In this document: positions 50,645 to 64,000 of the stretch, one piece after another
How the letters are laid out: each line of letters begins with the position of its first letter
Numbering within the stretch: position 1 is the first letter of the stretch
Origin: an uncultured beta proteobacterium
Lineage (GTDB): Bacteria; Pseudomonadota; Gammaproteobacteria; Burkholderiales; Burkholderiaceae_C
Reading direction: 5' to 3'
DNA length: 64,000 bases
Assembly (NCBI GenBank): GCA_903839085.1
Contig: CAIMBE010000126.1
Location: forward strand, 4,014 to 68,013
Translations under genes and position numbers: made by a program
The notes under the pieces: model-generated
Seen by the model: the letters and a program-made list of their open reading frames with translations, nothing else
What the model was told of the DNA's origin: nothing
Database searches by the model: none

Positions 50645-51505
50645 ATGTATACAACCCTGATCTCAGCGCAACAACTCCGCGGCCTGCAAGACGCCGGTGC
50701 GCCCTGCATGGTGTTTGATTGCAGTTTTGAGCTGATGCAGGCTGGCGCCGGCGATCAGCAGTACGAGCAGTCGCACATCCCCGGCGCCGTGCGGGCCGAT
50801 CTGGAGCGCCACCTGAGCGCCGCCAAAACGGCAAGCGACGCGGCATCGGGCGGGCGTCATCCCCTGCCCTCGCGCGAATCGTTTGCGGCCTGGCTTGGCA
50901 GCATCGGCTTTGGCAACCACATGCAGGCCGTTGCCTATGACCGCCAGGGCGCCGTTTACGGCGGCCGCCTGTGGTGGATGCTGAAGTGGGTGGGCCACGA
51001 AAACGTGGCCGTGCTCGACGGCGGTCTGCCGGTCTGGTTGGCCAGCGGCGGCGCGGTGGAAAGCGGCCTGTCCGGTGCGCTCGGTACTACCCGTTTTGCG
51101 CTCAGCGAGCCCAGGACCGCCCTGGTGACCACCGACACCGTGGCCCGTAATCTGGGGCGCCCGCAGCAAAGCCTGATCGATGCGCGCGGCGCACCCCGTT
51201 TCAAGGGTGAGGTGGAACCGCTGGACCCGGTCGCCGGACACATCCCCGGCGCGCTGAACCGCCCGTTCAGCCTGAACTTCGACGCGTCAGGCAGGTTCAA
51301 GCCGGCGTCCGAGTTGAAGGCCGAATTTGCATCACTGCTGGCCCTGCGCGACCCGGCCACAGTGGTCCACCACTGCGGCAGCGGCGTCAGCGCCGTGCCC
51401 AATATCATCGCCATGGAACTGGCCGGCCTGGGGCGCACTGCCCTCTATGCCGGCAGTTGGAGCGAGTGGTGCAGCGACCCTGCGCGCCCGGTGGCACAAG
51501 GTTAA
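50645..51505 (+). CDS. sseA: 3-mercaptopyruvate/thiosulfate sulfurtransferase (tandem rhodanese)
   Basis: Two rhodanese domains with the active-site loop HCGSGVSA. The track ORF (50384) is trimmed by 87 codons to ATG 50645. Confidence 0.88.
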   Translation: MYTTLISAQQLRGLQDAGAPCMVFDCSFELMQAGAGDQQYEQSHIPGAVRADLERHLSAAKTASDAASGGRHPLPSRESFAAWLGSIGFGNHMQAVAYDRQGAVYGGRLWWMLKWVGHENVAVLDGGLPVWLASGGAVESGLSGALGTTRFALSEPRTALVTTDTVARNLGRPQQSLIDARGAPRFKGEVEPLDPVAGHIPGALNRPFSLNFDASGRFKPASELKAEFASLLALRDPATVVHHCGSGVSAVPNIIAMELAGLGRTALYAGSWSEWCSDPARPVAQG

Positions 51506-52797
51506 ACAGTGCCAAATTTGGTATCGAACTGGATACCAATCTTCTGGAGCAGCGGCGTGGGGAGCAAGCCACCGGCACAGACAATGACGGCATCGTTGCG
51601 GTACTGCTGCGTCTTGCCATCAAATTCAATCTCAACCTGCTTGTCGTGAATCTGCTTCACTTTTGAATTGAGCATGACCCGCAAACGCCCAGCCAACTGC
51701 TGCTGCTCCAGCAGCGCGCGGTTCTTCTGCTTCACGCGCGAAAACGCGGCGCTACGATATGACAGGATGACATCCGTTTTGTCCTGTTGCGACAGGGCGA
51801 TGGCAGCTTCGAGCGCGCTGTCGCCGCCACCGACCACCAGTACCGCCTGGCCCTTGAATTGGGCCGGATCGACCAGCCGGTACATCACCTTGGGTGCCTC
51901 TTCACCCGGCACATCGAGTTTGCGCGGTGTGCCGCGCCGCCCCATGGACAGCAACACGGCGCGCGCGGTGTAACTGCCCTTGTTGGTGTTCACGCGAAAC
52001 ACCTCGCCGGTCTTTTCAATCAATTCCATGCGTTCATGAAAGCTGATTTCCAGCCCCGTCTTTTTAACCACGTCCTGCCAGAATTCGAGCAATTTTTCCT
52101 TCTGCACTTCGGCAAATTGCATTTTGCCGATGATGGCCAGTTCCACCGGCGCCGTCATGGCGATTTTCTGCCGTGGATAGTGGTAGACCGAGCCACCCAG
52201 CGAGTCCTCCTGCTCCACGATCTTGTAGCGCAACTTGTGTTCGATGGCCGACAGCCCCGCCGAAATGCCGGCCGGTCCGCAACCGACAATCAGCACATCG
52301 AAGTCCGCGCTCGCGCTACCCGACTTCGTCTTGCGGATCGCGTTCATCGCCTGGCGCCCCTGCTCGGCCGCCTTGCGAATCAGGCCCATGCCACCCAATT
52401 CTCCGGCGATGAAGATGCCGGGCACATTGGTCTCAAAGTTCTGACTGATATTGGGAATGTCGATGCCGCGCTTTTCGGTTCCGAACACCAGCTTGATGGC
52501 TTCAACCGGACAGGCATCGAGACAAGCCCCATGCCCGATGCAATGCGCCGCGTTGATCAGGACCGCCTTGCCGTTGACGACGCCCAGCGCGCTCTCGGGA
52601 CAGGCCTTGGTGCAGGCGCCTGAACCCATGCAGCGTGCCAAGTCAACTACCGGGTGCAGGGACGGCGGCTCCGCCAGGCCGCTCTCGATCGACTCGTGCA
52701 ATTGATGGGTGTGCGCCGTGTTGATGCGGCGGTGGCGCCGCAGGTAAAAGGCCAGGATCAAGCCGATAGCCAGCAAATACAGATACAGGTAATTCAT
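51502..52797 (-). CDS. membrane-anchored NAD(P)/FAD-dependent oxidoreductase with an N-terminal ferredoxin-like Fe-S domain
   Basis: N-terminal TM MNYLYLYLLAIGLILAFYLRRHRR. Two ferredoxin-like motifs CMGSGACTKACP and CIGHGACLDACP follow. Dinucleotide motifs are DVLIVGCGPAG and VLVVGGGDSALE. Start trimmed to ATG 52797. Confidence 0.85.
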   Translation of the reverse strand: MNYLYLYLLAIGLILAFYLRRHRRINTAHTHQLHESIESGLAEPPSLHPVVDLARCMGSGACTKACPESALGVVNGKAVLINAAHCIGHGACLDACPVEAIKLVFGTEKRGIDIPNISQNFETNVPGIFIAGELGGMGLIRKAAEQGRQAMNAIRKTKSGSASADFDVLIVGCGPAGISAGLSAIEHKLRYKIVEQEDSLGGSVYHYPRQKIAMTAPVELAIIGKMQFAEVQKEKLLEFWQDVVKKTGLEISFHERMELIEKTGEVFRVNTNKGSYTARAVLLSMGRRGTPRKLDVPGEEAPKVMYRLVDPAQFKGQAVLVVGGGDSALEAAIALSQQDKTDVILSYRSAAFSRVKQKNRALLEQQQLAGRLRVMLNSKVKQIHDKQVEIEFDGKTQQYRNDAVIVCAGGLLPTPLLQKIGIQFDTKFGTV

Positions 52798-52909: not shown

Positions 52910-53704
52910 TCAGGGCTGGCGCTTTGAGGCGCCAGCTGTCGCTGGGGCCGCTTGCCGCGCCTGCGCCAGGCTGGACTGAATCTGCTGCGCAAACAGGTTG
53001 TCAGGCCCGCCCATGGCCACGACCTGATCCCAGTACTTGACGGCGGCCGCGTAGTCCTTGCGCTCAAAGGCATCACTGCCGGCGATTGCCAGAGCCTTGA
53101 CGTTGCGTGGGTCAAGCGTAAGCGCGCGCGCAATCAGTTTCATCGGCTCACCGGTCAAAACCCGATTGTTCTTGACCGCCAACGCGTCGGCGTAGTCGGC
53201 GAGCAGGCCGGCGTCGCCCTTGCTCAGTTCGAACGCTTTGGCATAGGCTGCCACCGCCTCATCGGCGCGTCCCAGCGCACCATAGGAGCGCGCCAGCATG
53301 GCCCAACCCGCAGCGTCACCGGGCTTTTCCTTCAGCCGCGCCGCCAGTTTGCCGATCATGCTGCCCATCTGGTCGGAGGCAGCCGCATGCGGCGGCGTGG
53401 CACCCAGCGCGTGGGGAACGCTGGTTTTGGAACCAGCAGCAACGCCGTTGGACGCCGAGCGCTTGACCCCATAAACAACCGCGGCCACGATCAGCAACAC
53501 GATGACCAGAGCCGCCAGCCATTGCCACGCCGGCCGCCGGGGTGATGATGCCGGCGCGGGTGGCTCAGCCATCACGCAATCGAGGATGCTGCGCTCGTGC
53601 TGCGCCTTTTGCAGTTCGTACGACTCAATGCTGAGCGAGCCGGAGGCGCGCGCTTCGTCTAGTTGCAGCAGTTGATTCCTGAGAGCGCCTAAGTCGTGAT
53701 CCAT
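52910..53704 (-). CDS. CcmI/NrfG-like TPR protein (single TM, periplasmic TPR domain); putative apocytochrome chaperone
   Basis: TM WLAALVIVLLIVAAVVYGV, then TPR repeats (GWAMLARSYGALGRADEAVAAYAKAFEL, LDPRNVKALAIAGSDAFERKDYAAAVKYWDQVV) closely resembling CcmI/CycH C-terminal domains. I use start ATG 53704; ATG 53728 is also possible. Confidence 0.72.
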   Translation of the reverse strand: MDHDLGALRNQLLQLDEARASGSLSIESYELQKAQHERSILDCVMAEPPAPASSPRRPAWQWLAALVIVLLIVAAVVYGVKRSASNGVAAGSKTSVPHALGATPPHAAASDQMGSMIGKLAARLKEKPGDAAGWAMLARSYGALGRADEAVAAYAKAFELSKGDAGLLADYADALAVKNNRVLTGEPMKLIARALTLDPRNVKALAIAGSDAFERKDYAAAVKYWDQVVAMGGPDNLFAQQIQSSLAQARQAAPATAGASKRQP

Positions 53705-53730
53705 GGGTACTGTGATGCATGTTGACATTT

Positions 53731-55503
53731 TCAATGTTTGATCTGTTTCCAGCTTTCGCTCACGTGGCATTGCTGGCAGCGCGCGCCAAAACGCCCCTGA
53801 TGCGGGTCGCTGCTGCGGTGACAAGCGTAACAGGTCGCTGGCAGTGCGGCGGCGGCCTTGCCGGCCGGCGCCGGATCGCGATGGCAACTGACACAGGCCA
53901 CCGGTCGGTGCGCGCCTTCCAGCCGAAACTTGGTGCCTGTGTCATGGTCAAAGTCCCACAGCTTCCAGGCACGCGCGTTGTGGCAGCTTTCGCAACGCGG
54001 CCCCAGCGTCTGCTTGTGCTTGTCTTCCTTCAGATGGCAGGCCGTGCAGTCGCGCCGCGCATCCCGAAAACGCGTCGTTTCATGGCAGTTCTTGCAGGTG
54101 GCCACGCCGTGGCGCCCGTTGAGCGCAAAGCGGGCGCGGTTGTGATCGAAGCGCTCGACCTTCCAATTCAAATCGGAGTGACAGGCACCGCATTTCGGGC
54201 CAAGCTGGTCTTCATGTTTATCATCCTTCTTGTGGCAGCCCAGGCACTCTATCGAGGTGTTGCGCAAACTCTTGACGTCCTTGTGGCAGGAATCGCATTT
54301 GACCTTCGCTCCCCTGTGCGCGTTTTGCAGGCGAAAGCTGGTCTTGTCGTGGTCAAAGCGCGTGGCCTTCCAGTCGTTCGCGGTATGACAGTCGGCGCAT
54401 TTTTCACCGAGGTTGGCCGCGTGTTTATCATCCTTTTTGTGGCAGGCGTAGCACTCCTTGCTCGCCTGCTTGAACAGGCTGCCTTCGTGGCATGCCTTGC
54501 ACTCGGTCTTGACGTGTTTTCCCAGCAGCGGGAAAGCCGACTTGTCATGGTCAAAGCCGGGGGACTCCTTCCATGATTTTTCATTGTGGCACTTGGCACA
54601 GTCGCGCCCCAGACTGTCCTTGTGCTTGTCGTCCTTGCTGTGGCAGGCGTAGCACTCGCGGCTGGTCTTGACCTTGTAGAGATCAGCGGTATGACAGGCC
54701 GTGCACTTTGCGCTGTGGTGCTTGCCGTTCAGGACATACTTGGTATCAAGATCGTGGTTGAAGTGGGAGCTCTTCCAGGCTTTGTCGCCATGGCACGTGT
54801 CACACTTTTCACCAAATTGACCCTTGTGACCTTTCTGCTCGTCGTCCTTGCGGTGGCAGGCCAGACAGGCCTTGGGCGTGTCCTTGTATACGCCCTTCAA
54901 ATGGCAGGCCTCGCACTTTGTGTCAACGTGTTTGCCGCTCAGAGCGAATTTTGTTTTGCCATGGTCAAACCGGTATTCCTTCCAGTTCGTTGCATCGTGA
55001 CAGTCGGCGCAAGCGTTACTCAAAGCGCCCTTGTGCTTGTCGTCCTTGCGATGGCAGGCCACGCATGTGTCGGGCGCCTGTCGATACAGTTTGCCGGCAA
55101 GATGGCACTTCTCGCACTCCACTTTCTGATGCTTGGCCTTCAGCGGGTAATCGGTAATGGCGTGGTCAAACGCCTGCTTGTCCATCGCGTACAGCCGCAT
55201 GTCGCGCCCCTGGTGCTCGGTGTGGCATTGGCGACACTCCTGCGGTTTCATTTTTCCGTGGTGGCCGGTATGGGCGCTGACGTCAGCACGCGTCTCCTTG
55301 TGGCAATCCAGGCAAAGCCGGCTTTGTTCCTGGCGCTTGAACCGCACATGGCACTTCGCGCAGTCTTCCTCGTATTTGGCGTGGGCCTGCGACAGTTTTC
55401 CCGGTGCAATGACCGACTCGATACCCTGGGCCATGGCCCAGGGCGTGGCAAGCACGAGGCCAAGCAGAGCAACACAGCGCCAGATCCGGCCAATAGAAAG
55501 CAT
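53731..55503 (-). CDS. 24-haem c-type cytochrome (eight tandem trihaem c7/c3-like modules)
   Basis: Sec signal ...ATPWAMA-QG. I counted 24 CXXCH motifs in 590 aa. GAGGACGG lies upstream of the ATG. Confidence 0.95.
   Translation of the reverse strand: MLSIGRIWRCVALLGLVLATPWAMAQGIESVIAPGKLSQAHAKYEEDCAKCHVRFKRQEQSRLCLDCHKETRADVSAHTGHHGKMKPQECRQCHTEHQGRDMRLYAMDKQAFDHAITDYPLKAKHQKVECEKCHLAGKLYRQAPDTCVACHRKDDKHKGALSNACADCHDATNWKEYRFDHGKTKFALSGKHVDTKCEACHLKGVYKDTPKACLACHRKDDEQKGHKGQFGEKCDTCHGDKAWKSSHFNHDLDTKYVLNGKHHSAKCTACHTADLYKVKTSRECYACHSKDDKHKDSLGRDCAKCHNEKSWKESPGFDHDKSAFPLLGKHVKTECKACHEGSLFKQASKECYACHKKDDKHAANLGEKCADCHTANDWKATRFDHDKTSFRLQNAHRGAKVKCDSCHKDVKSLRNTSIECLGCHKKDDKHEDQLGPKCGACHSDLNWKVERFDHNRARFALNGRHGVATCKNCHETTRFRDARRDCTACHLKEDKHKQTLGPRCESCHNARAWKLWDFDHDTGTKFRLEGAHRPVACVSCHRDPAPAGKAAAALPATCYACHRSSDPHQGRFGARCQQCHVSESWKQIKH
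53734..55401 (-). repeat. eight tandem ~66-70-aa coding modules inside the cytochrome gene
   Basis: The recurring unit is FDH-x-K-x-F-x-L-x-GKH-x4-CxxCH-x10-14-CxxCH-x-KDDxH-x5-6-CxxCH-x5-W-x4-FDH. Each unit has three CXXCH motifs plus three extra His residues. Confidence 0.85.
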
Positions 55504-55518: not shown

Positions 55519-56418
55519 TCAGTAGGCGTGCACTGCAAAAATATGAACGAAGGTACTGATCACCAGCATGAAAACAAAAGGAATATGAGCGATATGCCAA
55601 GCCGAGAGCATCCAGGTGTAGGCACCGAACTGAGCCACCCGGACTTCGGCATTGAGGTAGCGCATCACCAGTTTGCGCGCCAGTCTGCGATGCTCGCGAA
55701 CCTTGTCGGCATTCCACTGCAGATGCTTGGCCAGCCGTGCTGAAGGTTCGCGCAACAATCGCGTGCAACGCCAGTAAACCAGCCACTGCACGATCGGCAA
55801 GACAAACACCCGGCGCATATAGGTGCGCCAGCCCGGCACGGCCGCGCGTTCGCGCTGTGCGAAATCGAGCAGTGTCTTCTCAACCTCACGCGCAAAACTC
55901 AGGCGCGAACGAACGCCCTCCTGCTCCAGACCGGCGCGCGCCTTGAGGTCCTGCAAACTCCCGATCTCACCATGCAAACCCCGGTTCACACGCATGTAAA
56001 TGAAGCGGCCGGCAACACCGCTGAGCGCAACAATGATCATGCTCCCGAGCGCCACGCCAGCGTTGATGGATCCAAACCGGAAACCGGAATGCACCAGAAT
56101 CAAAAGTGGCCCGCCGATACCCAGCACCATGTGCAACACAAGCCACATCCTGACAGGGCCCCAGTTGCGCGCGAAGCGGAAATGTTTGCGCAGAGGATAG
56201 CTGAACAGGATCAGCATCATGACGGCGCCGGCCACGCCAAGCCAGTAACCGAGGTCGTCCCTGGGCTTGAACAGCTTGAGCAGACTGATCTGGCGCGCAA
56301 CCCATACCAGGAAGGTCAGTGCGGCATAGACCATGAGGTCCTTGGAAAGCTCGGGCACATAACGCGCCGTTGTGGTGTCACCCGAACTGACATCTGATGC
56401 GTTGGAATTCAAGTTCAA
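55519..56418 (-). CDS. integral membrane protein with two H-x13-H helices; candidate dihaem b-type cytochrome subunit
   Basis: About five TM helices. LHMVLGIGGPLLILVH and HIPFVFMLVISTFVH each place two His residues 13 residues apart. The track start is a TTG overlapping the upstream stop (TTGA); ATG 56334 is an alternative. Confidence 0.7.
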   Translation of the reverse strand: MNLNSNASDVSSGDTTTARYVPELSKDLMVYAALTFLVWVARQISLLKLFKPRDDLGYWLGVAGAVMMLILFSYPLRKHFRFARNWGPVRMWLVLHMVLGIGGPLLILVHSGFRFGSINAGVALGSMIIVALSGVAGRFIYMRVNRGLHGEIGSLQDLKARAGLEQEGVRSRLSFAREVEKTLLDFAQRERAAVPGWRTYMRRVFVLPIVQWLVYWRCTRLLREPSARLAKHLQWNADKVREHRRLARKLVMRYLNAEVRVAQFGAYTWMLSAWHIAHIPFVFMLVISTFVHIFAVHAY

Positions 56419-58697
56419 TCCTCCGAACCCATCGACTGTGCGCGCCGTTTGCGCGCACGCAGCAACAGTGCTGCCATGAATAGCAGCAACCAGAGCACGG
56501 GATCGGGCTCACCCGCGATCGACATGGAGCAGCCACTCCCGCCGTCCGCCGGCGGCGATGCCGGCGCGACGATGACGACCGGCGTCACTAGCCCGGAACT
56601 GGTGGCGACAAAAAGACTGCCTCCCAGCAGACGCACGCCGTTGACCACCAACGAGGGCAAGGCCGATGTCCCAACGCCACTGATGTCAACCAGACCCTTG
56701 AAAGCCCGATCCGCCAGGCTGATGGCCCACAAACCCTCGGCCGTGCCAACATACAGATTCACCGTGTCCACGGCCAGCGCCTTGACACTGACCAGCGGAA
56801 ATGGCAGCGCGGCAAAGCCGGTAACCGAGCCCCAGGCACCGTTTTCATTCTGCATCAGAAAACCGTTGCCACCAATGAACACGACACCCGCCGCGACGGC
56901 AAGACTGTTGACGCGTGAATCGCTTGCAAACGACTCGGCCCCAAACATCCGCCACGCCGGCGCGAGCGCCGGTTTGGCCGGTACAAAATCGCTCGCCACA
57001 TAAACCGCATTGTCATAGCTGAGACCAACATCAAGCCACCCGGCCACATAAACCGAACCACCCGACACTACCAGGCTTTGGACATTGAAGTTGGCACGCG
57101 GCGCACTCTGGATCACATCAAAGGGCACGCCACCAACCAGCGGCCTCAATTCCAGGCAACCACTGTCATCAAAGCGGCGTCCAGCGTACAGTGCCTGCGC
57201 GCCAACCGCCAGCGCCCTGACGTCGTAGGCATTGCCAAGCGGCGTCCATGCGCCTGTTCCCTGCCACAGGTAATAAACGCCTTGGTCGGTGGCTGCGTAC
57301 AGCACGTTGTGGGCGCTGTCGGCAGCGAGTGCACGAATAGCGGTGACCGGTGAGAGCGGGCCGGCGAGCTGGGTACGGGTCCAGTTGGCACCGCGATCGG
57401 TACTCACCACCACGTCAACGTAGCTCCCGGTGTCGGTCTGCGTGATGGCAAACAGCGAGGCCCCGATTTGCGCAACATCCTGCACCTGCACATTGTTCAG
57501 CCGCTGGCTCGGTGCATCGACACGGGCCGGGCCGTTGAGCGGCGCTGGTTTTGACAGGGCAAGCAGCGTACTCTGCGTCAAATCAGCAGCGGTGCTGGCA
57601 TACAGACCGGACTCGGTGGCCCATAACAGGCTGGAGCGGGCAGCAGGATCGACCTGCAACGCAGCACGAACATAACTGCCCATGGCGAATGCAGGGCCCG
57701 GTACAAAACCCGGTGCCGACACGGTGCCGTCGTCGAATACCGAAGTAGCAAAAGCACCGTCACTGCTTGCCATGGCAAGCACGGATTGCGTCGCCGCGCC
57801 AACTCTGGCAACCGCCAGTCCATTGCAAGTCCTGGGATCATCACCGGCAAACTGCAGACGGGTCCAGGTCAGTAGCCCGCCCGTTGACAGATCGGCCTGG
57901 AAAACCAAGCCGGCCAGCGTGCAGGTAAACGCCCATTTGGACGAGGACGATACGATCGCCGCAACCTGCTCACCCAGCAACCCCGCGAGCACGGGAAAGC
58001 CGTCAGCGTCGGTCGTCGCCTCGCTGTTGATCCAGTTCTGATTGGCATCCTGACGGTAGATCGTGCTCAATGAACCAACCGCAACGCTCCCACCCAGCAA
58101 CCCGAGTGCGCTCACAGTGGAGGCACTGCCCGCCGGGCCCGCTGGCAAACTCGTTTTAACCCAGGCTGGTTTACTCTGTCCCGCCTCACTGGTGACATAG
58201 ATGTTGGGCTCACAGTTGGACGCCATGTACAAACGCGATTCGGCGCTGAGCAACAGGCTGATGGCACACGCCGATGCAGTGTCCGCCGCCTGGGGCGACT
58301 GCAGACGGCTCCAGCCCAAGGTACCGCCTGCGGGCGAAAAATAAACACCGTCATCGGTCGCGGCATAAACGAAATTGCCCAGGCTCGCCATGGCATGAAC
58401 ATGACGCCCGCTGCGTATGCCGCTGTTGCCAGCAGTCCAGGTGGCGCCCCCATCCTTGCTGACGAACACGCCATTGACATCACTGCCAGCGTACAAAATA
58501 TTCAACGGCTCAGCAGGATCAGCCAGCAAGGCCGTCACACTGCCGCCGGTCGGACCGAGCACGCTCCAGGTGGGCGCCGTCTGCGCCCAGCTCGCAAGGC
58601 TGCCAAGGCCACAGATCAGCAACAGCATCGTGCGAACACAACGCGCCCAGCGCAAAACAGCTAATGCACCGGCAAGCACACGGAGTCGATCGCTCAT
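56415..58697 (-). CDS. secreted BNR/Asp-box beta-propeller-like protein with a C-terminal tripartite sorting signal
   Basis: Long signal peptide ending SLASWA-QT. Asp-box motifs SKDGGATW and STDRGANW sit among Gly/Ser/Ala-rich repeats. I use start ATG 58697; the track start GTG 58736 is possible. Confidence 0.8.
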   Translation of the reverse strand: MSDRLRVLAGALAVLRWARCVRTMLLLICGLGSLASWAQTAPTWSVLGPTGGSVTALLADPAEPLNILYAGSDVNGVFVSKDGGATWTAGNSGIRSGRHVHAMASLGNFVYAATDDGVYFSPAGGTLGWSRLQSPQAADTASACAISLLLSAESRLYMASNCEPNIYVTSEAGQSKPAWVKTSLPAGPAGSASTVSALGLLGGSVAVGSLSTIYRQDANQNWINSEATTDADGFPVLAGLLGEQVAAIVSSSSKWAFTCTLAGLVFQADLSTGGLLTWTRLQFAGDDPRTCNGLAVARVGAATQSVLAMASSDGAFATSVFDDGTVSAPGFVPGPAFAMGSYVRAALQVDPAARSSLLWATESGLYASTAADLTQSTLLALSKPAPLNGPARVDAPSQRLNNVQVQDVAQIGASLFAITQTDTGSYVDVVVSTDRGANWTRTQLAGPLSPVTAIRALAADSAHNVLYAATDQGVYYLWQGTGAWTPLGNAYDVRALAVGAQALYAGRRFDDSGCLELRPLVGGVPFDVIQSAPRANFNVQSLVVSGGSVYVAGWLDVGLSYDNAVYVASDFVPAKPALAPAWRMFGAESFASDSRVNSLAVAAGVVFIGGNGFLMQNENGAWGSVTGFAALPFPLVSVKALAVDTVNLYVGTAEGLWAISLADRAFKGLVDISGVGTSALPSLVVNGVRLLGGSLFVATSSGLVTPVVIVAPASPPADGGSGCSMSIAGEPDPVLWLLLFMAALLLRARKRRAQSMGSED
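56418..56552 (-). other. C-terminal sorting-signal-like region of the beta-propeller protein
   Basis: The last 45 aa read PADGGSGCSMSIAGEPDPVLWLLLFMAALLLRARKRRAQSMGSED. They comprise a Gly/Ser stretch with a single Cys, a DP motif, a hydrophobic helix and a basic cluster. Confidence 0.65.
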
Positions 58698-58739
58698 AAA
58701 TACACCATTTGAAAATACATCATCTGCACACGCCACGCA

Positions 58740-60206
58740 TCAAAAGGAATACCAGGGACTGGTAGAAAATATGGGATCCCTGGCAGCCAGATCCCAGATT
58801 GACAAACTCACCCGTCTCCCATAGAAGAACGGTAGGCCCCAGGAAAAGGACGCCGCGCTGCCGTCCGAAGCCGCCGGGGCGCCCGCCATGCCCGCCAGTG
58901 CCGTGATCGACTGCGCCAGGGTACCGGCGTTGCCGACAGTGAAAAAAACCTTGGCCGCGTTCTGTCCCGGTCGGTCGCCGTCCGATACGGTCGCTGATTT
59001 CGACAAGGCGCTGAGCGGGCAATACCAGGAAGCCTCCCCCGCTGCAACCGCCGCACACCTTGCGATCGCGCTGTCGCTGAAGAACAAACCGTTGGTGCCG
59101 GTGTCGAGATAACTGTTGTAAATTGTGTTGCCGTTGTACTGGGTTGTGACACTGAGGTAAGAGTCGAATCCGTGCGTTGACAAGCTGTTCTGCCAGTCCA
59201 CGCCCAATTGAATCCGGTTCGCACCCGCGGCCAACTGGTTGCTGATGCTTCGCTTGCTGGCGTCAGTGCTGCGGGTATTGATGCCAAAAATAAGTTCCCC
59301 GTTGACTTTGGCAGCACCAGTCTCGGGAAGTGCCGGCAGCACCAGCACGACGCCATTGTTGTCAGCCAGATTGTTGTTGTTCGGGTCCTTGCCCAGTGCA
59401 GCGACCGGATTGAAAACCTGCAGGTTGGCGGCGACGGCAGCCGGCGTGCATTGAAGCGCGCTGCTGGCCGCTGGCGGACAGCTGTAGTACTGCACATAGG
59501 AGTTGACATAGTGCTTGTCAAGGCACAAGGCGCCGCAGTCCAGTGTGACGCTGCCGATGCCAAGGATGCCGTTAGAGCCGAGCGCGCTGACTGAACTCAG
59601 CACCTGGCCATTGACCGCGTTAAAACAGTCCAGCGGCGCCTGCACCGCAGCACCGGGATCGTCCTGGATCAGTTGCAGCGGAAGTGCGCTCGCCCACTGC
59701 TCGCCAAGTCCGACATCGGCCACTGCCGTCGGGCCCCACAGGCCACCCACCACAAAGGGGTAGCACTCGTGCGCCTGACCCGCCACACCCGCGGTGCCGG
59801 CACTGGATGAGAGCTCAACCGGAACCAGTCCGAGCGCAGCGACCTTGCTCGCCAGAATGCGCAGTCCAACCGAGCCGGTATCGACCTGCACGTGATCAAT
59901 CGTCGCGCATTTGGTGCTCGGACCATCAGTCGGTCGGGCACCGGGGGCACAGACCGTCACGTTGGCGTACAGAACATTGGTCGGCATCGCAAACAGATGG
60001 GCGGGCCCGCTGTCCACCGTCACTTCCATGTTGTTGACCTTTTGCACGAAAGGAGCACCAACCGTCGGACCGGTGACGGAACAATCGGGCGATGCGCTGC
60101 AGCGCAGGGTCGTCACGCTCGAATCACCGCCACCGCAGGCTGCCAAGCAAGCGAGGCAGATTGCCCAGGCAAGCGGAAAGTCAAACCGGCACAGCACGGT
60201 CTTCAC
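58740..60206 (-). CDS. lipoprotein with pepsin-like (two-DTG) aspartic-peptidase signature; probably the family annotated as DUF3443
   Basis: Lipobox in LAWAICLACLAAC-GGG. Ordered motifs are VQVDTGSVGL, NGILGIGS, NGELIFGI and YLDTGTNGLFF. The GTG start at 60206 overlaps the upstream stop (GTGA); track start 60437 is trimmed by 77 codons. Confidence 0.78.
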   Translation of the reverse strand: MKTVLCRFDFPLAWAICLACLAACGGGDSSVTTLRCSASPDCSVTGPTVGAPFVQKVNNMEVTVDSGPAHLFAMPTNVLYANVTVCAPGARPTDGPSTKCATIDHVQVDTGSVGLRILASKVAALGLVPVELSSSAGTAGVAGQAHECYPFVVGGLWGPTAVADVGLGEQWASALPLQLIQDDPGAAVQAPLDCFNAVNGQVLSSVSALGSNGILGIGSVTLDCGALCLDKHYVNSYVQYYSCPPAASSALQCTPAAVAANLQVFNPVAALGKDPNNNNLADNNGVVLVLPALPETGAAKVNGELIFGINTRSTDASKRSISNQLAAGANRIQLGVDWQNSLSTHGFDSYLSVTTQYNGNTIYNSYLDTGTNGLFFSDSAIARCAAVAAGEASWYCPLSALSKSATVSDGDRPGQNAAKVFFTVGNAGTLAQSITALAGMAGAPAASDGSAASFSWGLPFFYGRRVSLSIWDLAARDPIFSTSPWYSF

Positions 60207-60649
60207 TCCAGACCTATTTGCTCTGGATTGACGCCGCGCGGCAGCATGGAGCGGCGAAAAGCAAAGCCGGAAAACACGTGCAGATACGCGCTCGATTGGA
60301 GCACCAGATCGAGATCGTCGTGCTGAAAATACCGTTGCACGCCAGTGCGTTGTGCAGCGACCCGCGCTGCCGCTGAGTAGCCCGGATACGAGGTTCCCAG
60401 CAGAGCCGAGAGGTCGGGCTTGTACAGGGTGCGCCAACTCACAGCAAAGACCATGCCGCTGCTTGAGACATATTGCCGAAAGCGTGAGCCATCGGCACTC
60501 TGGAACTCGTGCAGCGAATACTGCGCGCCGGGCATGACCCGATGCTGTGCCGCCATGCGTTTATGCTCGACATTGTTCGAATCAAGATCCTGTCCGAGGC
60601 CGGCAAAAGAATGCACCGGTCCGAGCAAGAGCGCCAGCGCCACTATCAT
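60203..60649 (-). CDS. small secreted protein (148 aa), probably the DUF2844 family
   Basis: Signal peptide MIVALALLLGPVHSFA-GL. The track ORF (to 61291) is trimmed by 214 codons, because its upstream part is the Arg/Pro/Thr/Gln-rich antisense of the CPBP gene. Confidence 0.7.
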   Translation of the reverse strand: MIVALALLLGPVHSFAGLGQDLDSNNVEHKRMAAQHRVMPGAQYSLHEFQSADGSRFRQYVSSSGMVFAVSWRTLYKPDLSALLGTSYPGYSAAARVAAQRTGVQRYFQHDDLDLVLQSSAYLHVFSGFAFRRSMLPRGVNPEQIGLE

Positions 60650-60658
60650 GCGCAAACA

Positions 60659-61099
60659 ATGACACCCTTGATGCAGCCAGTTTACCGGCCCATGTTCGCT
60701 GCCTACGGCCTGGTCTTCGCTTGCGGACCGGTTGGTGCCTGGCTCGCTCTGCACAGTGGCATCGGTCTTGGCGCCGCATCCTGCACCCCAACTGCCCTGC
60801 TCACCCTGCTGCTGATCGCGCCGATCGCTGAAGAAACCGTGTTTCGACTGGGCCTGCACAACTTCTTGCTCAACCGGTTTCAGATGTGTTGGGGCGCGCT
60901 CAGCCTGGCCAATGCTCTGGTCGCCGTGGTATTTTCTGCCCTTCACGCCCTGCACCAGGGTTCGATCAGAATGCTGCTCACCGCTGTACCCGCGTTGCTG
61001 CTCGGTTGGCTGTGGGAACGCAGCGGACGCCGCTTGCAGGTACCGAGCGGGTTTCATGCCTGGTTCAACCTGTGCCTGGCGCTGGTCAGTTGCCGGTAG
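60659..61099 (+). CDS. mini CPBP-family (CAAX-protease-like) glutamic intramembrane endopeptidase
   Basis: All three CPBP motifs occur in order: PIAEETVFR (EExxxR), FSALHAL (FxxxH) and HAWFN (HxxxN). They are embedded in hydrophobic helices. Start is ATG 60659; 60671 and 60692 are alternatives. Confidence 0.8.
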   Translation: MTPLMQPVYRPMFAAYGLVFACGPVGAWLALHSGIGLGAASCTPTALLTLLLIAPIAEETVFRLGLHNFLLNRFQMCWGALSLANALVAVVFSALHALHQGSIRMLLTAVPALLLGWLWERSGRRLQVPSGFHAWFNLCLALVSCR

Positions 61100-61106
61100 A
61101 CCGCCA

Positions 61107-63974
61107 TCAGTAGAAGTCATAGCGGTAGCCAAGGTAGAAGAATACGGCCGAAGAATCCTCGTGGTTGGTCGGTCCGTCGGTCGTGGAGTGCTCGTAAATG
61201 GTCTCACCCAGCAAGCTGGCGCGATCCGAGATCTTGTAGGAGAGCCGCACGCCCGGAGACACGCGCGACACCTTGGTTGCGGTGTTGTCAATCTGCGAAT
61301 AGATGCGTAGTGAGGGCTCGAAGCTCGCCTTGTTATCTAGAAAACCGGTTAGGTTGTTGTAAGCCATTTGCGTTCCGCGCAATGTGTCGCTGTGCATGAC
61401 GCTAAGGTTGAAGCCGTTGATGTCGCGGTTTGAATATAGATTGGAACCAGTCAACTGTATGGAGACGTTGTACTGGGCACCGGTTGCGGGCATGGCTTGG
61501 AAGTCGCCGACGGCGGGTAAGGCCCCAACATCGCTATAACGCAGATCAAGCGTGCCCTGCCACTTCGGCGCCAGTGCGCGCGAAACACTGAACAGTGCCT
61601 GGCGCGCCAGCGCCGCCGTGCCCAAGGCCATTTCCTTGACCTCGGCCAGACTCTTGAGTTGTAACAATGTCTTGAGCGAGGTCGTACCTGAGCTGATCAG
61701 GGCGTCGCTCAATTGAAGCGAAGGCGCCTTGCGGCTGTCAAGCAGCAAGGTGATCGTGGTGCCCAGCGGCCCCTGCACCGATCCCTGCATGGTGGCAGCA
61801 TTGAGGGTGCGGAAGTTGAGGTCGTAATCAAGTTGCGAGTACATCGACAGCGAGTCGCCAAAATAACGCAATTCAAAACCCGCCGCCCGGCGGTCCGAAA
61901 TACCCTCAGACTTCTGGTCCACCAGCGAAATATTGCCGCCCCAGTGATCAAACAGGTTGTCGGCCTCCAGCACCAGGCCCGCCAGTCGCTGTGATGGCGC
62001 TGACACCAGCGTATTGGCCGGTGCGCCGGCCATGGCATCAAGCCTGAACTTTCCGCCAACCGGCATCATCAGCGAGACACCGTCAAACAAGCCAAACAAG
62101 GAACCACCGATCGCCGCCTGGCGCCCGAACCGCACGTCGAGTTGCGGATCGCGGAAACGGTAATCCACATAGACCGCACTCAGGCCGCTTTGCGTATTGG
62201 TCGAAGTGATGAAGTTCTTGGAATAGGTGTCACGCAGGACAAGCTTGGTTTCCGAGTTCTCCGACTTGTAGCGCCCGGAGAGGTCAACGCTGGTCACTAG
62301 CGTTGATTGGTTGGTGCGGCTCAGCGTGCTCTGGTCAATTCCAGCGGCAATGTTGACCAGCGAATCGGTCTTCGAGCGCCCGCCATAGTAATACTGCGAA
62401 ACACTGCCCGAGGAAATCAGGCCGCCCTGCCCTGACGCTGCATCGGGCTTGTCCGTTGTTTTGGCGCCGCTGGCGATGGGAGCGCCCAGCGCGTCAAGAC
62501 GCTGCGCCACACGCAGCGCCGCCTCACCCTGGGGATAGAGCCGAAGGTACAACTGGTACTCGATGCGGGCCTTCTCGTTCTGTTTCAGACCCTCCCAGGC
62601 GGCGCCAATCAATTCCTGGGCCTGCTGTGATGCCCGATTGGGTGGCAGCAGCAAAGTTTGGTTGAAAGCCACCACGGCATCCTGCCAACGCTGCTGGCTC
62701 AGGGCAAACTGCCCCCTGTGAAGCAATTCAGCGGCCTGGCCGTTGACCTTGGCAACGGACTCGTTGTCAGGCAGCACCGCGTCAGCCGGGGCCTGCACTA
62801 CAGCCAAGGCGACCGGCGGCATCGCCGGGCTAGGCGGCGGTGCCGTACTTGCGACGACGACGGGGCTGGGCGCGACAGTCACAGCGGTTGTCGGCGTCAG
62901 CGACGCCAGAGGAACAACACTGGCCATCGGGAAACTACCTGCGGCCCTGTCTCGCACTGTCTGGGCCTCCTCCAGCGTGCGGAAATACCCCATTGCCAGC
63001 GCCAAGCGCTGGTCACCGTCCTGTTCGAGCTTGCGCGTGAAGACCGTATAGTCTTGAAACTGCGCCGCCACACGCGGCATTTTGGCCGCATCGTCGAGCG
63101 CAAAAGTCTGTAACAACACCACATAGCGCCGCTCATCGGGCACGGCAGCCATCGCTGCGAGCCCCGCGGGTGGCGGCGCAACCGGGCCTCTACCACCCGA
63201 CGCGAGTGGCGTCGGCGCCAGTTGCCCGTTCTGGAGGACGCTGGCCAAGGGGAATCGATCCGCCGCGCGGTCCCGCACCGTTTGCGCCTCGGCCTGTGTC
63301 CGAAAATAACCCATGACCAGCGCAAAGCGCTGCCGACCATCCTGTTCGATCTTGCGAGTGAAAACCGCGTAGTCCTGAAATTGCGCTGCCACGCGCGGCA
63401 TTTCTGCGGCCTCATCGATCGCAAAAGTCTGCAGCACCACGACATAACTCCTCTCATCGGGCCGGATCGCCATGGCCGGTAGCGGCTTGTCCGGTACCAA
63501 TGCCCCCCCTGCGCCATCAGCACCGACAAACGCAAGATCAATGGCGTGTGCCCCGGGTCCCTGGCGCGCCAGAACCCGGACCTTGTTGGTAAAGCGCAAA
63601 GACAGCGACTGGGTGAACAGTCTTGTTTGTGGAACATAGCTCAGGGCTATGCCCACCTTGCCGGCACTGCGCTCCAGGCGCTTGCTCTCTTCAACCGATT
63701 GCCCTGCCACGACCTCATCGGCCACAACAATCTGAAACCCCAGTTGCACCAGATCGGTCGGCGCCAGTGGTGACTGCCGCAGAAAACGCACGTTGGCGTT
63801 GAAGGTAATACGGGCTACCGCTGGCCTTGCGCCTTCAATCCATTGCAGACTTTCGATCGTCTGCGCCGACACCCCAGCGCAAAACAATGGCGAGCAGACC
63901 AAGCAGGCCCATAGCCGCAATGTTGCCGAACCCATTAAAACCACCCAAAAAGCGCGCGCCCGCACCGCCCACAC
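61107..63974 (-). CDS. outer-membrane protein: signal peptide, N-terminal domain, two SPOR-like domains, Pro/Ala linker, TPR segment, C-terminal ~440-aa beta-barrel
   Basis: The C-terminus YLGYRYDFY is a typical OMP terminal signature. An alternating-polarity beta-strand pattern runs through the last ~440 aa. The duplicated DER-YVV-LQTFA ... GYF-T--EAQTVRDRAA modules are SPOR-like. The start is GTG 63974 or ATG 63935. Confidence 0.85.
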   Translation of the reverse strand: MWAVRARAFWVVLMGSATLRLWACLVCSPLFCAGVSAQTIESLQWIEGARPAVARITFNANVRFLRQSPLAPTDLVQLGFQIVVADEVVAGQSVEESKRLERSAGKVGIALSYVPQTRLFTQSLSLRFTNKVRVLARQGPGAHAIDLAFVGADGAGGALVPDKPLPAMAIRPDERSYVVVLQTFAIDEAAEMPRVAAQFQDYAVFTRKIEQDGRQRFALVMGYFRTQAEAQTVRDRAADRFPLASVLQNGQLAPTPLASGGRGPVAPPPAGLAAMAAVPDERRYVVLLQTFALDDAAKMPRVAAQFQDYTVFTRKLEQDGDQRLALAMGYFRTLEEAQTVRDRAAGSFPMASVVPLASLTPTTAVTVAPSPVVVASTAPPPSPAMPPVALAVVQAPADAVLPDNESVAKVNGQAAELLHRGQFALSQQRWQDAVVAFNQTLLLPPNRASQQAQELIGAAWEGLKQNEKARIEYQLYLRLYPQGEAALRVAQRLDALGAPIASGAKTTDKPDAASGQGGLISSGSVSQYYYGGRSKTDSLVNIAAGIDQSTLSRTNQSTLVTSVDLSGRYKSENSETKLVLRDTYSKNFITSTNTQSGLSAVYVDYRFRDPQLDVRFGRQAAIGGSLFGLFDGVSLMMPVGGKFRLDAMAGAPANTLVSAPSQRLAGLVLEADNLFDHWGGNISLVDQKSEGISDRRAAGFELRYFGDSLSMYSQLDYDLNFRTLNAATMQGSVQGPLGTTITLLLDSRKAPSLQLSDALISSGTTSLKTLLQLKSLAEVKEMALGTAALARQALFSVSRALAPKWQGTLDLRYSDVGALPAVGDFQAMPATGAQYNVSIQLTGSNLYSNRDINGFNLSVMHSDTLRGTQMAYNNLTGFLDNKASFEPSLRIYSQIDNTATKVSRVSPGVRLSYKISDRASLLGETIYEHSTTDGPTNHEDSSAVFFYLGYRYDFY
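62913..63473 (-). repeat. tandem duplication (period 321 nt / 107 aa) encoding the two SPOR-like domains
   Basis: PDERSYVVVLQTFAIDEAAEMPRVAAQFQDYAVFTRKIEQDGRQRFALVMGYFRTQAEAQTVRDRAADRFPLASV aligns without gaps to PDERRYVVLLQTFALDDAAKMPRVAAQFQDYTVFTRKLEQDGDQRLALAMGYFRTLEEAQTVRDRAAGSFPMASV. The DNA copies are visibly similar. Confidence 0.75.
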
Positions 63975-64000
63975 CGACCAAAAAGGGCGGTGCGGACTTC

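Follow-up and report, generated by a model that had tools for sequence, protein, structure and literature searches.

The window analysed here is a stretch of 64 kb, and the genes described lie on its minus strand unless stated otherwise. At 53731..55503 is the gene for a 24-haem c-type cytochrome of 590 aa, in which a Sec signal is followed by eight trihaem repeats; its open reading frame begins with ATG and is intact. The gene directly upstream, ending 15 nt before the cytochrome gene, encodes a protein of 297 aa (55519..56412, with a TTG start at 56412) that carries the motifs of the inner-membrane proteins of PCC3-type porin-cytochrome gene clusters and is predicted to cross the membrane with five TM helices and to have a helical loop domain of ~120 aa. 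Only 2 nt past the cytochrome's stop comes the ATG of a CcmI/NrfG-like TPR protein of 272 aa with one TM helix (52910..53728; Pfam TPR_CcmH_CycH, 2.8e-23). This protein also matches TIGR03142 ccmI and NrfG, and is putatively a dedicated apocytochrome chaperone. A further 112 nt downstream lies the gene for a membrane-anchored oxidoreductase of 431 aa (51502..52797), in which domain matches point to a 2x[4Fe-4S] ferredoxin and an FAD/NAD(P) (TrxR/YpdA-like) part behind an N-terminal TM helix.

Upstream of the inner-membrane gene is a BNR/sortilin-like beta-propeller of 773 aa (56415..58736) that ends in a JDVT-CTERM sorting signal (GSGC-x8-DP, a TM helix and RARKRR). The NCBIfam model NF033191 for JDVT-CTERM scores 29.7 bits, over its cut-off, and the BNR/Sortilin matches are hints. 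Next come a DUF3443 protein, a predicted lipoprotein with an LAAC lipobox (58740..60206; Pfam PF11925, 1.4e-84), and a DUF2844 protein of 148 aa with a signal peptide and an ATG at 60649 (60203..60649; Pfam PF11005, 1.8e-25). A literature search on DUF3443 and DUF2844 found no papers. On the plus strand, at 60659..61099, is an MrtJ-type CPBP intramembrane protease (NCBIfam NF033192, 1.4e-19; 70.6 bits, just under the cut-off of 75), predicted to be the cognate sorting enzyme for JDVT-CTERM; in a relative, a 146-aa Rce1-like gene occupies the same place. Finally, 61107..63935 encodes a PCC3 porin-family outer-membrane protein of 955 aa, assigned by homology to canonical porin-position genes. 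It comprises a signal peptide, an N-terminal domain, two SPOR-like repeats, a TPR region (the SPOR and TPR matches are weak) and a C-terminal part that reads as a putative beta-barrel of ~430 aa with the aromatic end YRYDFY. A promoter/terminator scan returned nothing informative.

Haem motifs and repeats of the cytochrome

The original prediction counted 24 CXXCH motifs in the 590 aa, or about one haem per 25 residues. The recount gives exactly 24 motifs among 49 Cys and 53 His (24.6 aa per haem), while 20,000 shuffles of the same residues yield a mean of 0.36 and a maximum of 4. A motif scan of the protein found no CX3CH, CX4CH or CXXCK variants. The predicted Sec export without a lipobox was likewise borne out by the signal peptide, which reads ...ATPWAMA/QG. 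Three Pfam families score above their cut-offs in the multihaem HMM searches that had been named as a check: PF14522 Cytochrome_C7 (102.4 bits against 24.8, in nine stretches of the protein), PF14537 Cytochrom_c3_2 (64.3 bits, gathering threshold 25) and PF02085 Cytochrom_CIII (43.7 bits, gathering threshold 22.9). By its sequence, the protein is a Sec-exported, non-lipidated, 24-haem cytochrome of class III (c3/c7 superfamily) built from eight diverged trihaem repeats.

The eight copies are ~66-70 aa long, 25-52% identical to one another in pairwise comparison, and align to the consensus L-x-G-x-H-x4-6-CxxCH-x11-12-CxxCH-x-KDDxH-x7-8-CxxCH-x4-WK-x3-5-FDH. Six modules end in FDH and one in FNH, and the protein's C-terminus is ...WKQIKH. 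The original prediction took FDH as the module boundary, with three further His per module as distal ligands. The eight trihaem repeats stand, and a register that ends at FDH matches the protein's termini; on the other hand, the Pfam alignment, the alignment to PDB entry 3OV0 and the conservation of His favour other registers. A c7-like register is shifted by one CXXCH from the FDH-delimited modules, and the unit implied by the alignment begins at KDDxH, with one distal His relocated. Across 72 aligned 24-haem orthologues, all 24 CXXCH motifs and exactly 24 other His are invariant, which would suffice for bis-His ligation of each haem. In this respect the predicted ligation holds, except that the terminal H590 is G, N or R in other sequences and that H97 in module 1 takes its place as the 24th invariant distal His. 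Since H590 varies and H97 does not, the His count fits only if each FDH His is given to the next repeat.

A gene of such repetitive architecture could in principle have been assembled with the wrong repeat number, or be a pseudogene whose reading frame is not expressed, and the original prediction listed a repeat artefact among its possible refutations. We consider this reading hardly credible. The repeats are only 60-72% identical to one another at the DNA level, Tandem Repeats Finder called no tandem repeat in the gene and direct repeats are weak. Among the best 120 homologues, 73 also have 24 motifs and all but two of the others have a multiple of three between 27 and 45, which makes 118 with multiples of three. 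Together, the diverged DNA repeats and the motif counts of the homologues exclude repeat collapse or expansion. Moreover, 71 homologues of about the same length, drawn from separate clusters of the database, are colinear with all 24 motifs invariant, the cytochrome gene is tightly spaced with its neighbours, and PCC3 genes are transcribed in Sideroxydans CL21 according to the literature.

Comparison among these homologues gives a repeat-level picture. The repeats are orthologous one to one among 24-haem proteins. In relatives with 27-45 haems, most of the difference lies in how many interior-type repeats there are and how they are ordered, and the end repeats are usually retained. Repeat 1 at the N-terminus and repeats 7-8 at the C-terminus are unique, while interior repeats are duplicated in relatives. 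This pattern would fit a protein whose two ends are specialised for docking, with a variable-length spacer between them.

The PCC3 cluster and its partner genes

PCC3 porin-cytochrome clusters were described by He et al. 2017 (PMC5566968) and Hoover et al. 2023 (PMC10734462), and have been reported in Sideroxydans lithotrophicus ES-1, Sideroxydans sp. CL21 and Leptothrix. Their periplasmic cytochromes are characterized by ~21-27 CXXCH motifs, 22-39 aa per haem and repeat units (PMC5566968, PMC10734462). Periplasmic subunits that carry 21, 24 or 27 haems are already known from these papers, as are linear AlphaFold models and the proposal that these proteins span the periplasm. With 24 motifs, 24.6 aa per haem and eight repeats, the cytochrome falls within this description. 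It is a member of the already described PCC3 family and so is not new; the original prediction missed this named identity, along with the published periplasm-bridging hypothesis and linear models. Related loci are carried by, among others, Leptothrix discophora and Sphaerotilus mobilis, whose group is reported to encode PCC3, and in Leptothrix discophora the 24-haem orthologue shares 56% identity and is accompanied by the same partner genes.

[quoted passage not shown] The 297-aa protein has five hydrophobic segments and the motifs WLVLH96-x13-H110, S133-G-x-x-G137 and WHIAH278-x13-H292. Across 51 homologues there is no variation at W92, H96, H110, S133, G134, G137, W274, H278 or H292. As in PCC3, it is paired with the cytochrome: a homologue of ~300 aa lies directly upstream of the 24-haem gene in 80 of 80 related genome loci. 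At the locus of a 45-haem relative (L086), no gene is called directly upstream and none is of ~300-aa size. No Pfam or NCBIfam family matches the protein, a profile of it finds no match among PDB sequences, and its AlphaFold2 model (pLDDT 73.6) gave only spurious helical matches in Foldseek (E >= 0.1). With no relative among solved structures by sequence or fold, binding of b haems is read from motifs only, and we describe the protein as a putative di-haem b protein. He et al. 2017 proposed a resemblance of the PCC3 inner-membrane protein to a ferric-reductase domain, for which the spurious Foldseek matches give no fold-level confirmation.

The 955-aa protein is 34% identical to the porin-position gene product of a canonical PCC3 locus (L001; E 7e-86) and 33% identical to that of another locus (L087; E 4e-94), so that by homology the cluster contains an outer-membrane porin gene. 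Among 31 related loci with at least 8 kb on each flank, a second, larger cytochrome is present in all 31 and a porin homologue in 29. The 64-kb window holds no other ORF with two or more CXXCH motifs, so the gene for the extracellular cytochrome is not in it. In all seven loci of the window type (L002-L007 and L009), that gene is directly upstream of the homologue of the 955-aa porin, and in relatives its stop falls at a point ~40 nt past the end of the window. The giant extracellular cytochrome thus adjoins the cluster in relatives of this locus, as in PCC3.

The layout differs from the canonical one, in which four genes follow in the order inner-membrane protein, periplasmic cytochrome, extracellular cytochrome and porin. 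In the window type the order is extracellular cytochrome, porin, MrtJ (on the opposite strand), DUF2844, DUF3443, JDVT-CTERM propeller, inner-membrane protein, 24-haem cytochrome and CcmI-like protein, and the propeller gene is present in window-type relatives. The two SPOR-like repeats of the window-type porin also set it against canonical PCC3. Canonical 24-haem PCC3 proteins have a C-terminal tail of 13-56 aa, whereas the window sub-type has none. It is this layout that is modestly new, including the CcmI-like and FeS-flavoprotein genes that come after the cytochrome.

Whether the FeS-flavoprotein belongs to the system is uncertain. Its gene occurs within 10 kb of 17 of the 31 well-flanked PCC3 loci, and in four of four loci picked only by the length of their surrounding sequence, homologues lie immediately 3' of clusters holding large cytochromes. 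As a universal PCC3 partner the protein was rejected: it is absent from a Nitrospirota locus (L084) and from two further loci (L085, L087), which makes the association at most Burkholderiales-specific.

Comparison with known multihaem cytochromes

The original prediction likened the protein to the c7 polymers of Geobacter sulfurreducens. The dodecahaem cytochrome GSU1996 (PDB 3OV0) is likewise one periplasmic polypeptide in which trihaem units of the c3/c7 superfamily follow in tandem, at 26.5 aa per haem against 24.6 here. The tandem trihaem architecture, the Cytochrome_C7 match and a match of the repeat profile to 3OV0 (E 6.5e-7) could accordingly suggest a stand-alone relative of GSU1996, GSU0592 and GSU2210 that works without an outer-membrane conduit, but we regard this as very improbable. 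The 3OV0 match owes its score to the CXXCH motifs and is no better than that to the 16-haem HMC, phmmer with the full-length cytochrome finds no PDB chain at E <= 0.01, and the full-length profile finds only weak c3-type matches among PDB sequences. PMC10138318 describes one His-Met haem in each GSU1996 domain, whereas the present cytochrome has 24 invariant His and only five Met, none of them conserved and each located in the signal peptide or repeat 1. Ligand order differs as well, being H, H, CXXCH, CXXCH, H, CXXCH here and H-x2-H, CXXCH, H/M, CXXCH, CXXCH in c7. In addition, the gene context is that of PCC3, while dedicated inner-membrane or porin partners of GSU1996 are not described in the part of PMC10138318 consulted. 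Of the likeness originally drawn, the trihaem units and the family match therefore stand, and the kinship appears to be remote, a distant superfamily relationship only, as the lack of a conserved Met ligand and the weak profile similarity suggest.

The best profile matches among solved structures are 1H29 (3e-7), 1GWS and 1Z1N, of the HmcA/16-haem/nonahaem type. The sulfate-reducer cytochromes c3 of this type (HmcA and the high-molecular-weight 16-haem and nonahaem proteins) are likewise class III, bis-His-rich and multi-domain, but they form globular assemblies of c3-like domains rather than a regular three-haem repeat. The NCBIfam HmcA model gives a partial match of 41.6 bits, far under its cut-off of 400. 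MtrA and MtoA (MtrCAB/MtoAB) offer a functional analogy: they too are peptide-minimised haem wires that face the periplasm and have an outer-membrane beta-barrel as partner. Mtr also has an extracellular cytochrome, and trans-envelope electron transfer is the proposed role in common. The cytochrome does not match their family (TIGR03508 DmsE, 19.7 bits against a cut-off of 192), and PCC3, unlike the MtrA/MtoA systems, has an inner-membrane protein of its own. MtrA has 10 haems and reaches across ~100 A, only part of the periplasm, with other carriers thought to bridge the remainder (cited in PMC5566968).

Proposed electron path and its implications

Our preferred reading, to which we assign a probability of about 0.75, is that the product of the gene at 53731..55503 is the periplasmic multihaem subunit of a PCC3-type porin-cytochrome cluster and would act as a wire crossing the periplasm. 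The inner-membrane protein would use its two HX13H pairs to bind two b haems, and would exchange electrons either with the quinone pool or with a partner in the cytoplasm. If as linear as known peptide-minimised cytochromes, the 24-haem chain would be roughly 18-24 nm long and could serve as a single unbroken wire for electrons across the periplasm, with the distal end contacting or inserting into the porin and there meeting the extracellular multihaem cytochrome. The sequence supports a periplasmic haem wire, and this reading is strengthened by the putative di-haem-b protein directly upstream and by the PCC3 porin homologue in the cluster. The sequence is compatible with either direction of electron flow, Fe(II)/mineral oxidation or extracellular reduction. 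An AlphaFold2 model of the cytochrome, built without haems from the 72-sequence alignment, has low confidence (pLDDT 61.8, pTM 0.25), and a Foldseek search of the PDB with it found no meaningful match; a fold dominated by haems needs its cofactors, so the model is uninformative on shape or length.

The main competitor to a fixed bridge is a soluble periplasmic protein that stores electrons or ferries them as a mobile shuttle. Acting as a capacitor like GSU1996, it would accept as many as 24 electrons from the inner-membrane protein and pass them on to the outer-membrane complex through diffusion or by docking transiently. The cleavable Sec signal and the lack of a membrane anchor or lipobox would suit such a protein, PMC10138318 discusses GSU1996-type periplasmic 'nanowires' as capacitors, and Hoover et al. 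(PMC10734462) also mention storage for PCC3. Furthermore, haem numbers of 24-45 among the homologues listed, and of 21 in the literature, are hard to square with a fixed periplasmic width. Against it, the dedicated inner-membrane partner at all 80 loci and the conserved terminal repeats suggest defined docking at both ends, and an elongated rod of ~65 kDa would probably diffuse poorly through the peptidoglycan layer. On balance we hold the store or shuttle to be a minority possibility, at roughly one chance in five. More speculative still, and in our view improbable, is a distinct PCC3 sub-type in which the conduit would work with the JDVT-CTERM/MrtJ surface-sorted beta-propeller, the DUF3443 lipoprotein and DUF2844. 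The 2x[4Fe-4S]-FAD-NAD(P) oxidoreductase might then exchange electrons directly with the di-haem-b protein from the cytoplasmic side, giving a 'split NOX-like', quinone-independent, pyridine-nucleotide-linked envelope conduit.

The window adds no new principle. What it contributes is a clearly resolved case of the 24-haem subunit, whose ends are conserved and whose middle can expand, a variant layout of the PCC3 locus and a set of candidate accessory genes (the CcmI-like chaperone, the FeS-flavoprotein and the JDVT-CTERM propeller). These contributions could guide genetic work in cultivable carriers, among them Rhodoferax lacus, Leptothrix discophora, Piscinibacter aquaticus and Hydrogenophaga aromaticivorans. 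PCC3 clusters occur widely in Burkholderiales of freshwater and soil, in Gallionellaceae and beyond, and are prime candidates for a putative role in microbial iron oxidation or other extracellular electron exchange. If the proposed path is true, a single polypeptide wiring the inner to the outer membrane would depart in design from the shuttle-based pathways of Mtr and Geobacter.

An eight-fold trihaem cytochrome

The gene at 53731..55503 (- strand) encodes, from an ATG start, a cytochrome of 590 aa with exactly 24 CXXCH motifs, 49 Cys and 53 His, and with no variant haem motif. This density of haem sites is not a product of composition, as 20,000 shuffles of the protein's own residues gave a mean of 0.36 CXXCH and a maximum of 4. 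Cut at the FDH-type His, the protein resolves into eight units, unit 1 of 88 aa and the others of 66-70 aa, with the consensus L-x-G-x-H / CxxCH / x11-12 / CxxCH-x-KDDxH / x7-8 / CxxCH / WK-x3-5-FDH. Pairwise identity is 33-52% within units 2-8 and 25-31% against unit 1. The motif count and the unit alignment bear out the original prediction of 24 motifs in eight FDH-delimited modules of about 66-70 aa. The protein is also exported, as had been proposed: its N-terminus, MLSIGRIWRCVALLGLVLATPWAMA/QG, reads as a predicted Sec signal without a lipobox.

Collapse or expansion of the repeats during assembly, which had been named as fatal to the prediction, is ruled out, since the repeats share only 60-72% DNA identity and 73 of the 120 best homologues likewise carry 24 motifs. 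Tandem Repeats Finder called no tandem repeat in the cytochrome DNA. All but two of the other best homologues have 27, 30, 33, 36, 39, 42 or 45 motifs, all multiples of three, which argues that evolution has worked in whole trihaem units. Among 24-haem proteins, every repeat finds its best match in the equally numbered repeat of the window protein (w1 to w8, in order), and the eight-fold structure is therefore older than the split of these lineages. In the closer relatives, those with 27 and 30 haems, interior repeats (types w3-w6) occur in extra copies; farther out, in proteins with up to 45 haems, repeats of interior type increase in number and lose their order. Most relatives begin with w1 and most finish with w7-w8, a pattern suggesting two specialised ends and a spacer of variable length between them. 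At the C-terminus (window 53731-53760), proteins from loci with the window's gene layout end 10-11 residues past the last CXXCH (WKxIKx), whereas canonical 24-haem proteins have a non-conserved tail of 13-56 residues; the short end may have to do with the porin and accessory set, which also differ.

Across 72 aligned 24-haem orthologues (55-85% identical), the 24 CXXCH and exactly 24 additional His are all invariant, and no Met is conserved. This supports the predicted bis-His ligation of every haem, for which the His ligands suffice. The original tally of GKH, KDDxH and FDH residues in each module was right in number and wrong in one position: the terminal H590 is variable (G, N or R in orthologues), and it is H97, in unit 1, that completes the 24 invariant His. 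According to the Pfam Cytochrome_C7 model and an HMM alignment to GSU1996, the dodecahaem cytochrome of Geobacter sulfurreducens, the c7-like unit runs from KDDxH-CXXCH to FDH/GKH-CXXCH-CXXCH, offset by one haem from the modules first proposed.

A PCC3 cluster with a variant layout

Searches with multihaem models, proposed with the original prediction, matched class III cytochrome families in Pfam (Cytochrome_C7 with 102 bits in nine stretches, also Cytochrom_c3_2 and Cytochrom_CIII); in NCBIfam, no model reached its cut-off. The cytochrome has more than 5,500 homologues; a scan of one genome per species gave 80 loci. Nearly all hosts are labelled betaproteobacteria of the order Burkholderiales, with genera including Rhodoferax, Polaromonas, Piscinibacter, Leptothrix, Sphaerotilus, Ideonella, Hydrogenophaga and Rubrivivax. 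The nearest relatives (78-86% identity) come from uncultured lake betaproteobacteria.

[quoted passage not shown] 2017, PMC5566968). In that study, the periplasmic cytochrome has a median of 21 haems, with 22-39 aa per haem, and is built of repeat units, while the inner-membrane protein has five TM helices, with SGXXG on TM4 and WX3HX13H on TM3 and TM5. Hoover et al. (2023) report periplasmic subunits with 21, 24 and 27 haems. Directly upstream of the window's cytochrome gene, 55519..56412 encodes an inner-membrane protein with five hydrophobic segments and exactly the PCC3-defining motifs (W92-x3-H96-x13-H110, S133-G-x-x-G137 and W274-x3-H278-x13-H292), which are invariant across 51 homologues. 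The pairing is obligate: in all 80 loci, the gene just upstream of the 24-haem cytochrome encodes a membrane protein of ~300 aa. The window protein is thus a PCC3 periplasmic cytochrome, of a family already known, and the new part is the variant layout of its locus.

Where at least 8 kb is available on both flanks, a second, larger cytochrome is present in all 31 loci and a large outer-membrane protein in 29 of them; over the whole survey, the larger cytochromes carry 10 to ~92 CXXCH. Some neighbouring extracellular-cytochrome ORFs are giant when read stop-to-stop (L062, 3494 aa and 92 CXXCH; L031, 3402 aa and 90; L045, 3096 aa and 81), the first two exceeding the 85-86 haem sites given in publications of 2017-2019 as the most reported for any one protein.

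The window's cluster includes a porin homologue of 955 aa (61107..63935, - strand), which shares 33-34% identity with the proteins encoded at the porin position in canonical clusters (E 7e-86 and 4e-94) and has an aromatic C-terminus of outer-membrane type. Its N-terminal half holds two tandem SPOR-like (peptidoglycan-binding-type) repeats, a weak match (Pfam E 0.08), and a TPR region, before a putative C-terminal barrel; of two canonical loci, L087 has one such repeat and L001 none. Besides the 24-haem cytochrome, no ORF in the 64-kb window has two or more CXXCH. However, in seven of seven loci with the window's layout (L002-L007 and L009; cytochromes 64-86% identical to the window's), the gene immediately upstream of the 955-aa homologue encodes a large cytochrome (1297 aa as called on one contig; 11-13 CXXCH visible up to the locus edge). 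Aligned to these loci, the window's last bases place the stop codon of that gene ~40 nt past position 64000, so the window appears to hold the full PCC3 set save the extracellular cytochrome, whose gene would be cut off at the edge.

The canonical order is inner-membrane protein, periplasmic cytochrome, extracellular cytochrome, porin. The window differs, running from the putative extracellular cytochrome past its edge to the porin, an MrtJ protease on the opposite strand, DUF2844, a DUF3443 lipoprotein, a 773-aa beta-propeller with a JDVT-CTERM sorting signal, the inner-membrane protein, the 24-haem cytochrome, a CcmI/NrfG-like TPR protein and a membrane-anchored 2x[4Fe-4S]-FAD oxidoreductase. 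The genes are closely packed: the propeller stop directly adjoins the start of the inner-membrane gene, with 15 nt before the cytochrome and 2 nt before the CcmI-like gene. Three MAGs carry both locus types (L005/L032, L006/L041 and L009/L054), which argues that the window type is a paralogous second system and not a rearranged replacement; similarly, two PCC3 copies are reported in Sideroxydans sp. CL21.

Accessory genes

The propeller (56415-58736, - strand; BNR/sortilin-like) ends in GSGC, a DP nine residues past the Cys, a TM helix and RARKRR. About 1.9 kb from it, on the opposite strand, lies a gene for an MrtJ-type CPBP protease (60659-61099, + strand; 70.6 bits, just below the 75-bit cut-off). 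The signal and its cognate protease match point to a dedicated surface-sorting system embedded in the electron-conduit cluster, recalling the NHL propellers of Uet clusters. The DUF2844/DUF3443 pair (58740-60649, - strand) also accompanies PCC3-type clusters at several Burkholderiales loci (L056, L057, L090) and lies ~9 kb downstream of a Nitrospirota cluster (L084, 21101-21962); our literature search found no paper on either family.

The CcmI/NrfG-like gene (52910-53728, - strand) begins 2 nt beyond the stop codon of the cytochrome. In relatives, ccm genes directly follow the PCC3 porin, from ccmA to ccmC up to the locus edge in L087 (20185-22448) and as the full ccmABCDEFGHI set in L091 (3007-9971). 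Together these adjoining genes suggest dedicated maturation capacity for haem-rich proteins; no further ccm gene occurs among the scanned window ORFs. Those between 18644 and 48119 belong to the ordinary housekeeping complement of a chromosome (NAD-dependent DNA ligase, RpoD, an acyl-CoA synthetase-type enzyme, an ABC-F ATPase, RmuC, a TRAP solute-binding protein, Dxs and a polyprenyl synthase).

The TrxR/YpdA-like FAD/NAD(P) oxidoreductase (51502..52797, - strand) begins with a TM helix and, after it, RRHRR. At 74-92% identity it is better conserved than the cytochrome (55-60% in most loci), and its gene lies within 10 kb of PCC3 in 17 of 31 well-flanked loci. Of the loci of its homologues, four were picked on length of assembled sequence alone, and all four stand immediately 3' of large-cytochrome clusters, one with the entire ccmABCDEFGHI operon in between; the gene is absent beside the Nitrospirota cluster. 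The flavoprotein may feed electrons into the system, may be the inner-membrane protein's partner on the cytoplasmic side or a maturation reductase, or its position may reflect mere synteny. A Rieske ring-hydroxylating oxygenase and a rhodanese adjoin it, here and in relatives.

A candidate periplasmic haem wire

The proposal of a periplasmic haem wire is a reasonable reading of the sequence and agrees with the published PCC3 hypothesis. Hoover et al. (2023) describe AlphaFold2 models of the periplasmic subunit as 'long and mostly linear' and consider that it may span the periplasm; Edwards et al. (2019) make the same argument from the correlation of haem number with length, where ~27 haems correspond to ~200 Å. 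The putative di-haem-b inner-membrane protein would exchange electrons at the membrane, and the 24-haem protein would form one continuous chain of ~18-24 nm (scaled from Edwards' correlation and the GSU1996 length given in the original prediction), docking to the porin or inserting into it, where it would meet the extracellular cytochrome. The chief alternative has the protein serve as a capacitor or shuttle, not as a static bridge. Our own AlphaFold2 model of the cytochrome, built without haems, has low confidence (pLDDT 61.8, pTM 0.25), and Foldseek found nothing with it; for the inner-membrane protein (pLDDT 73.6), Foldseek found no structural neighbour in the PDB.

GSU1996, as the original prediction correctly stated, has four trihaem domains and 12 haems. 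It has one His-Met haem in each domain (PMC10138318), whereas none can be inferred in the window cytochrome. Full-length phmmer found no PDB chain, and the repeat profile matched GSU1996 (3OV0, 6.5e-7) no better than HMC, the 16-haem cytochrome of sulfate reducers (3e-7), both alignments resting on the CXXCH motifs. Membership of the GSU1996 family is thus unsupported; by analogy, the cytochrome may still work like a haem chain of that type. PCC3 is described as functionally unverified even in papers of 2025-26, and the present finding points to accessory genes and cultivable carriers for testing it.
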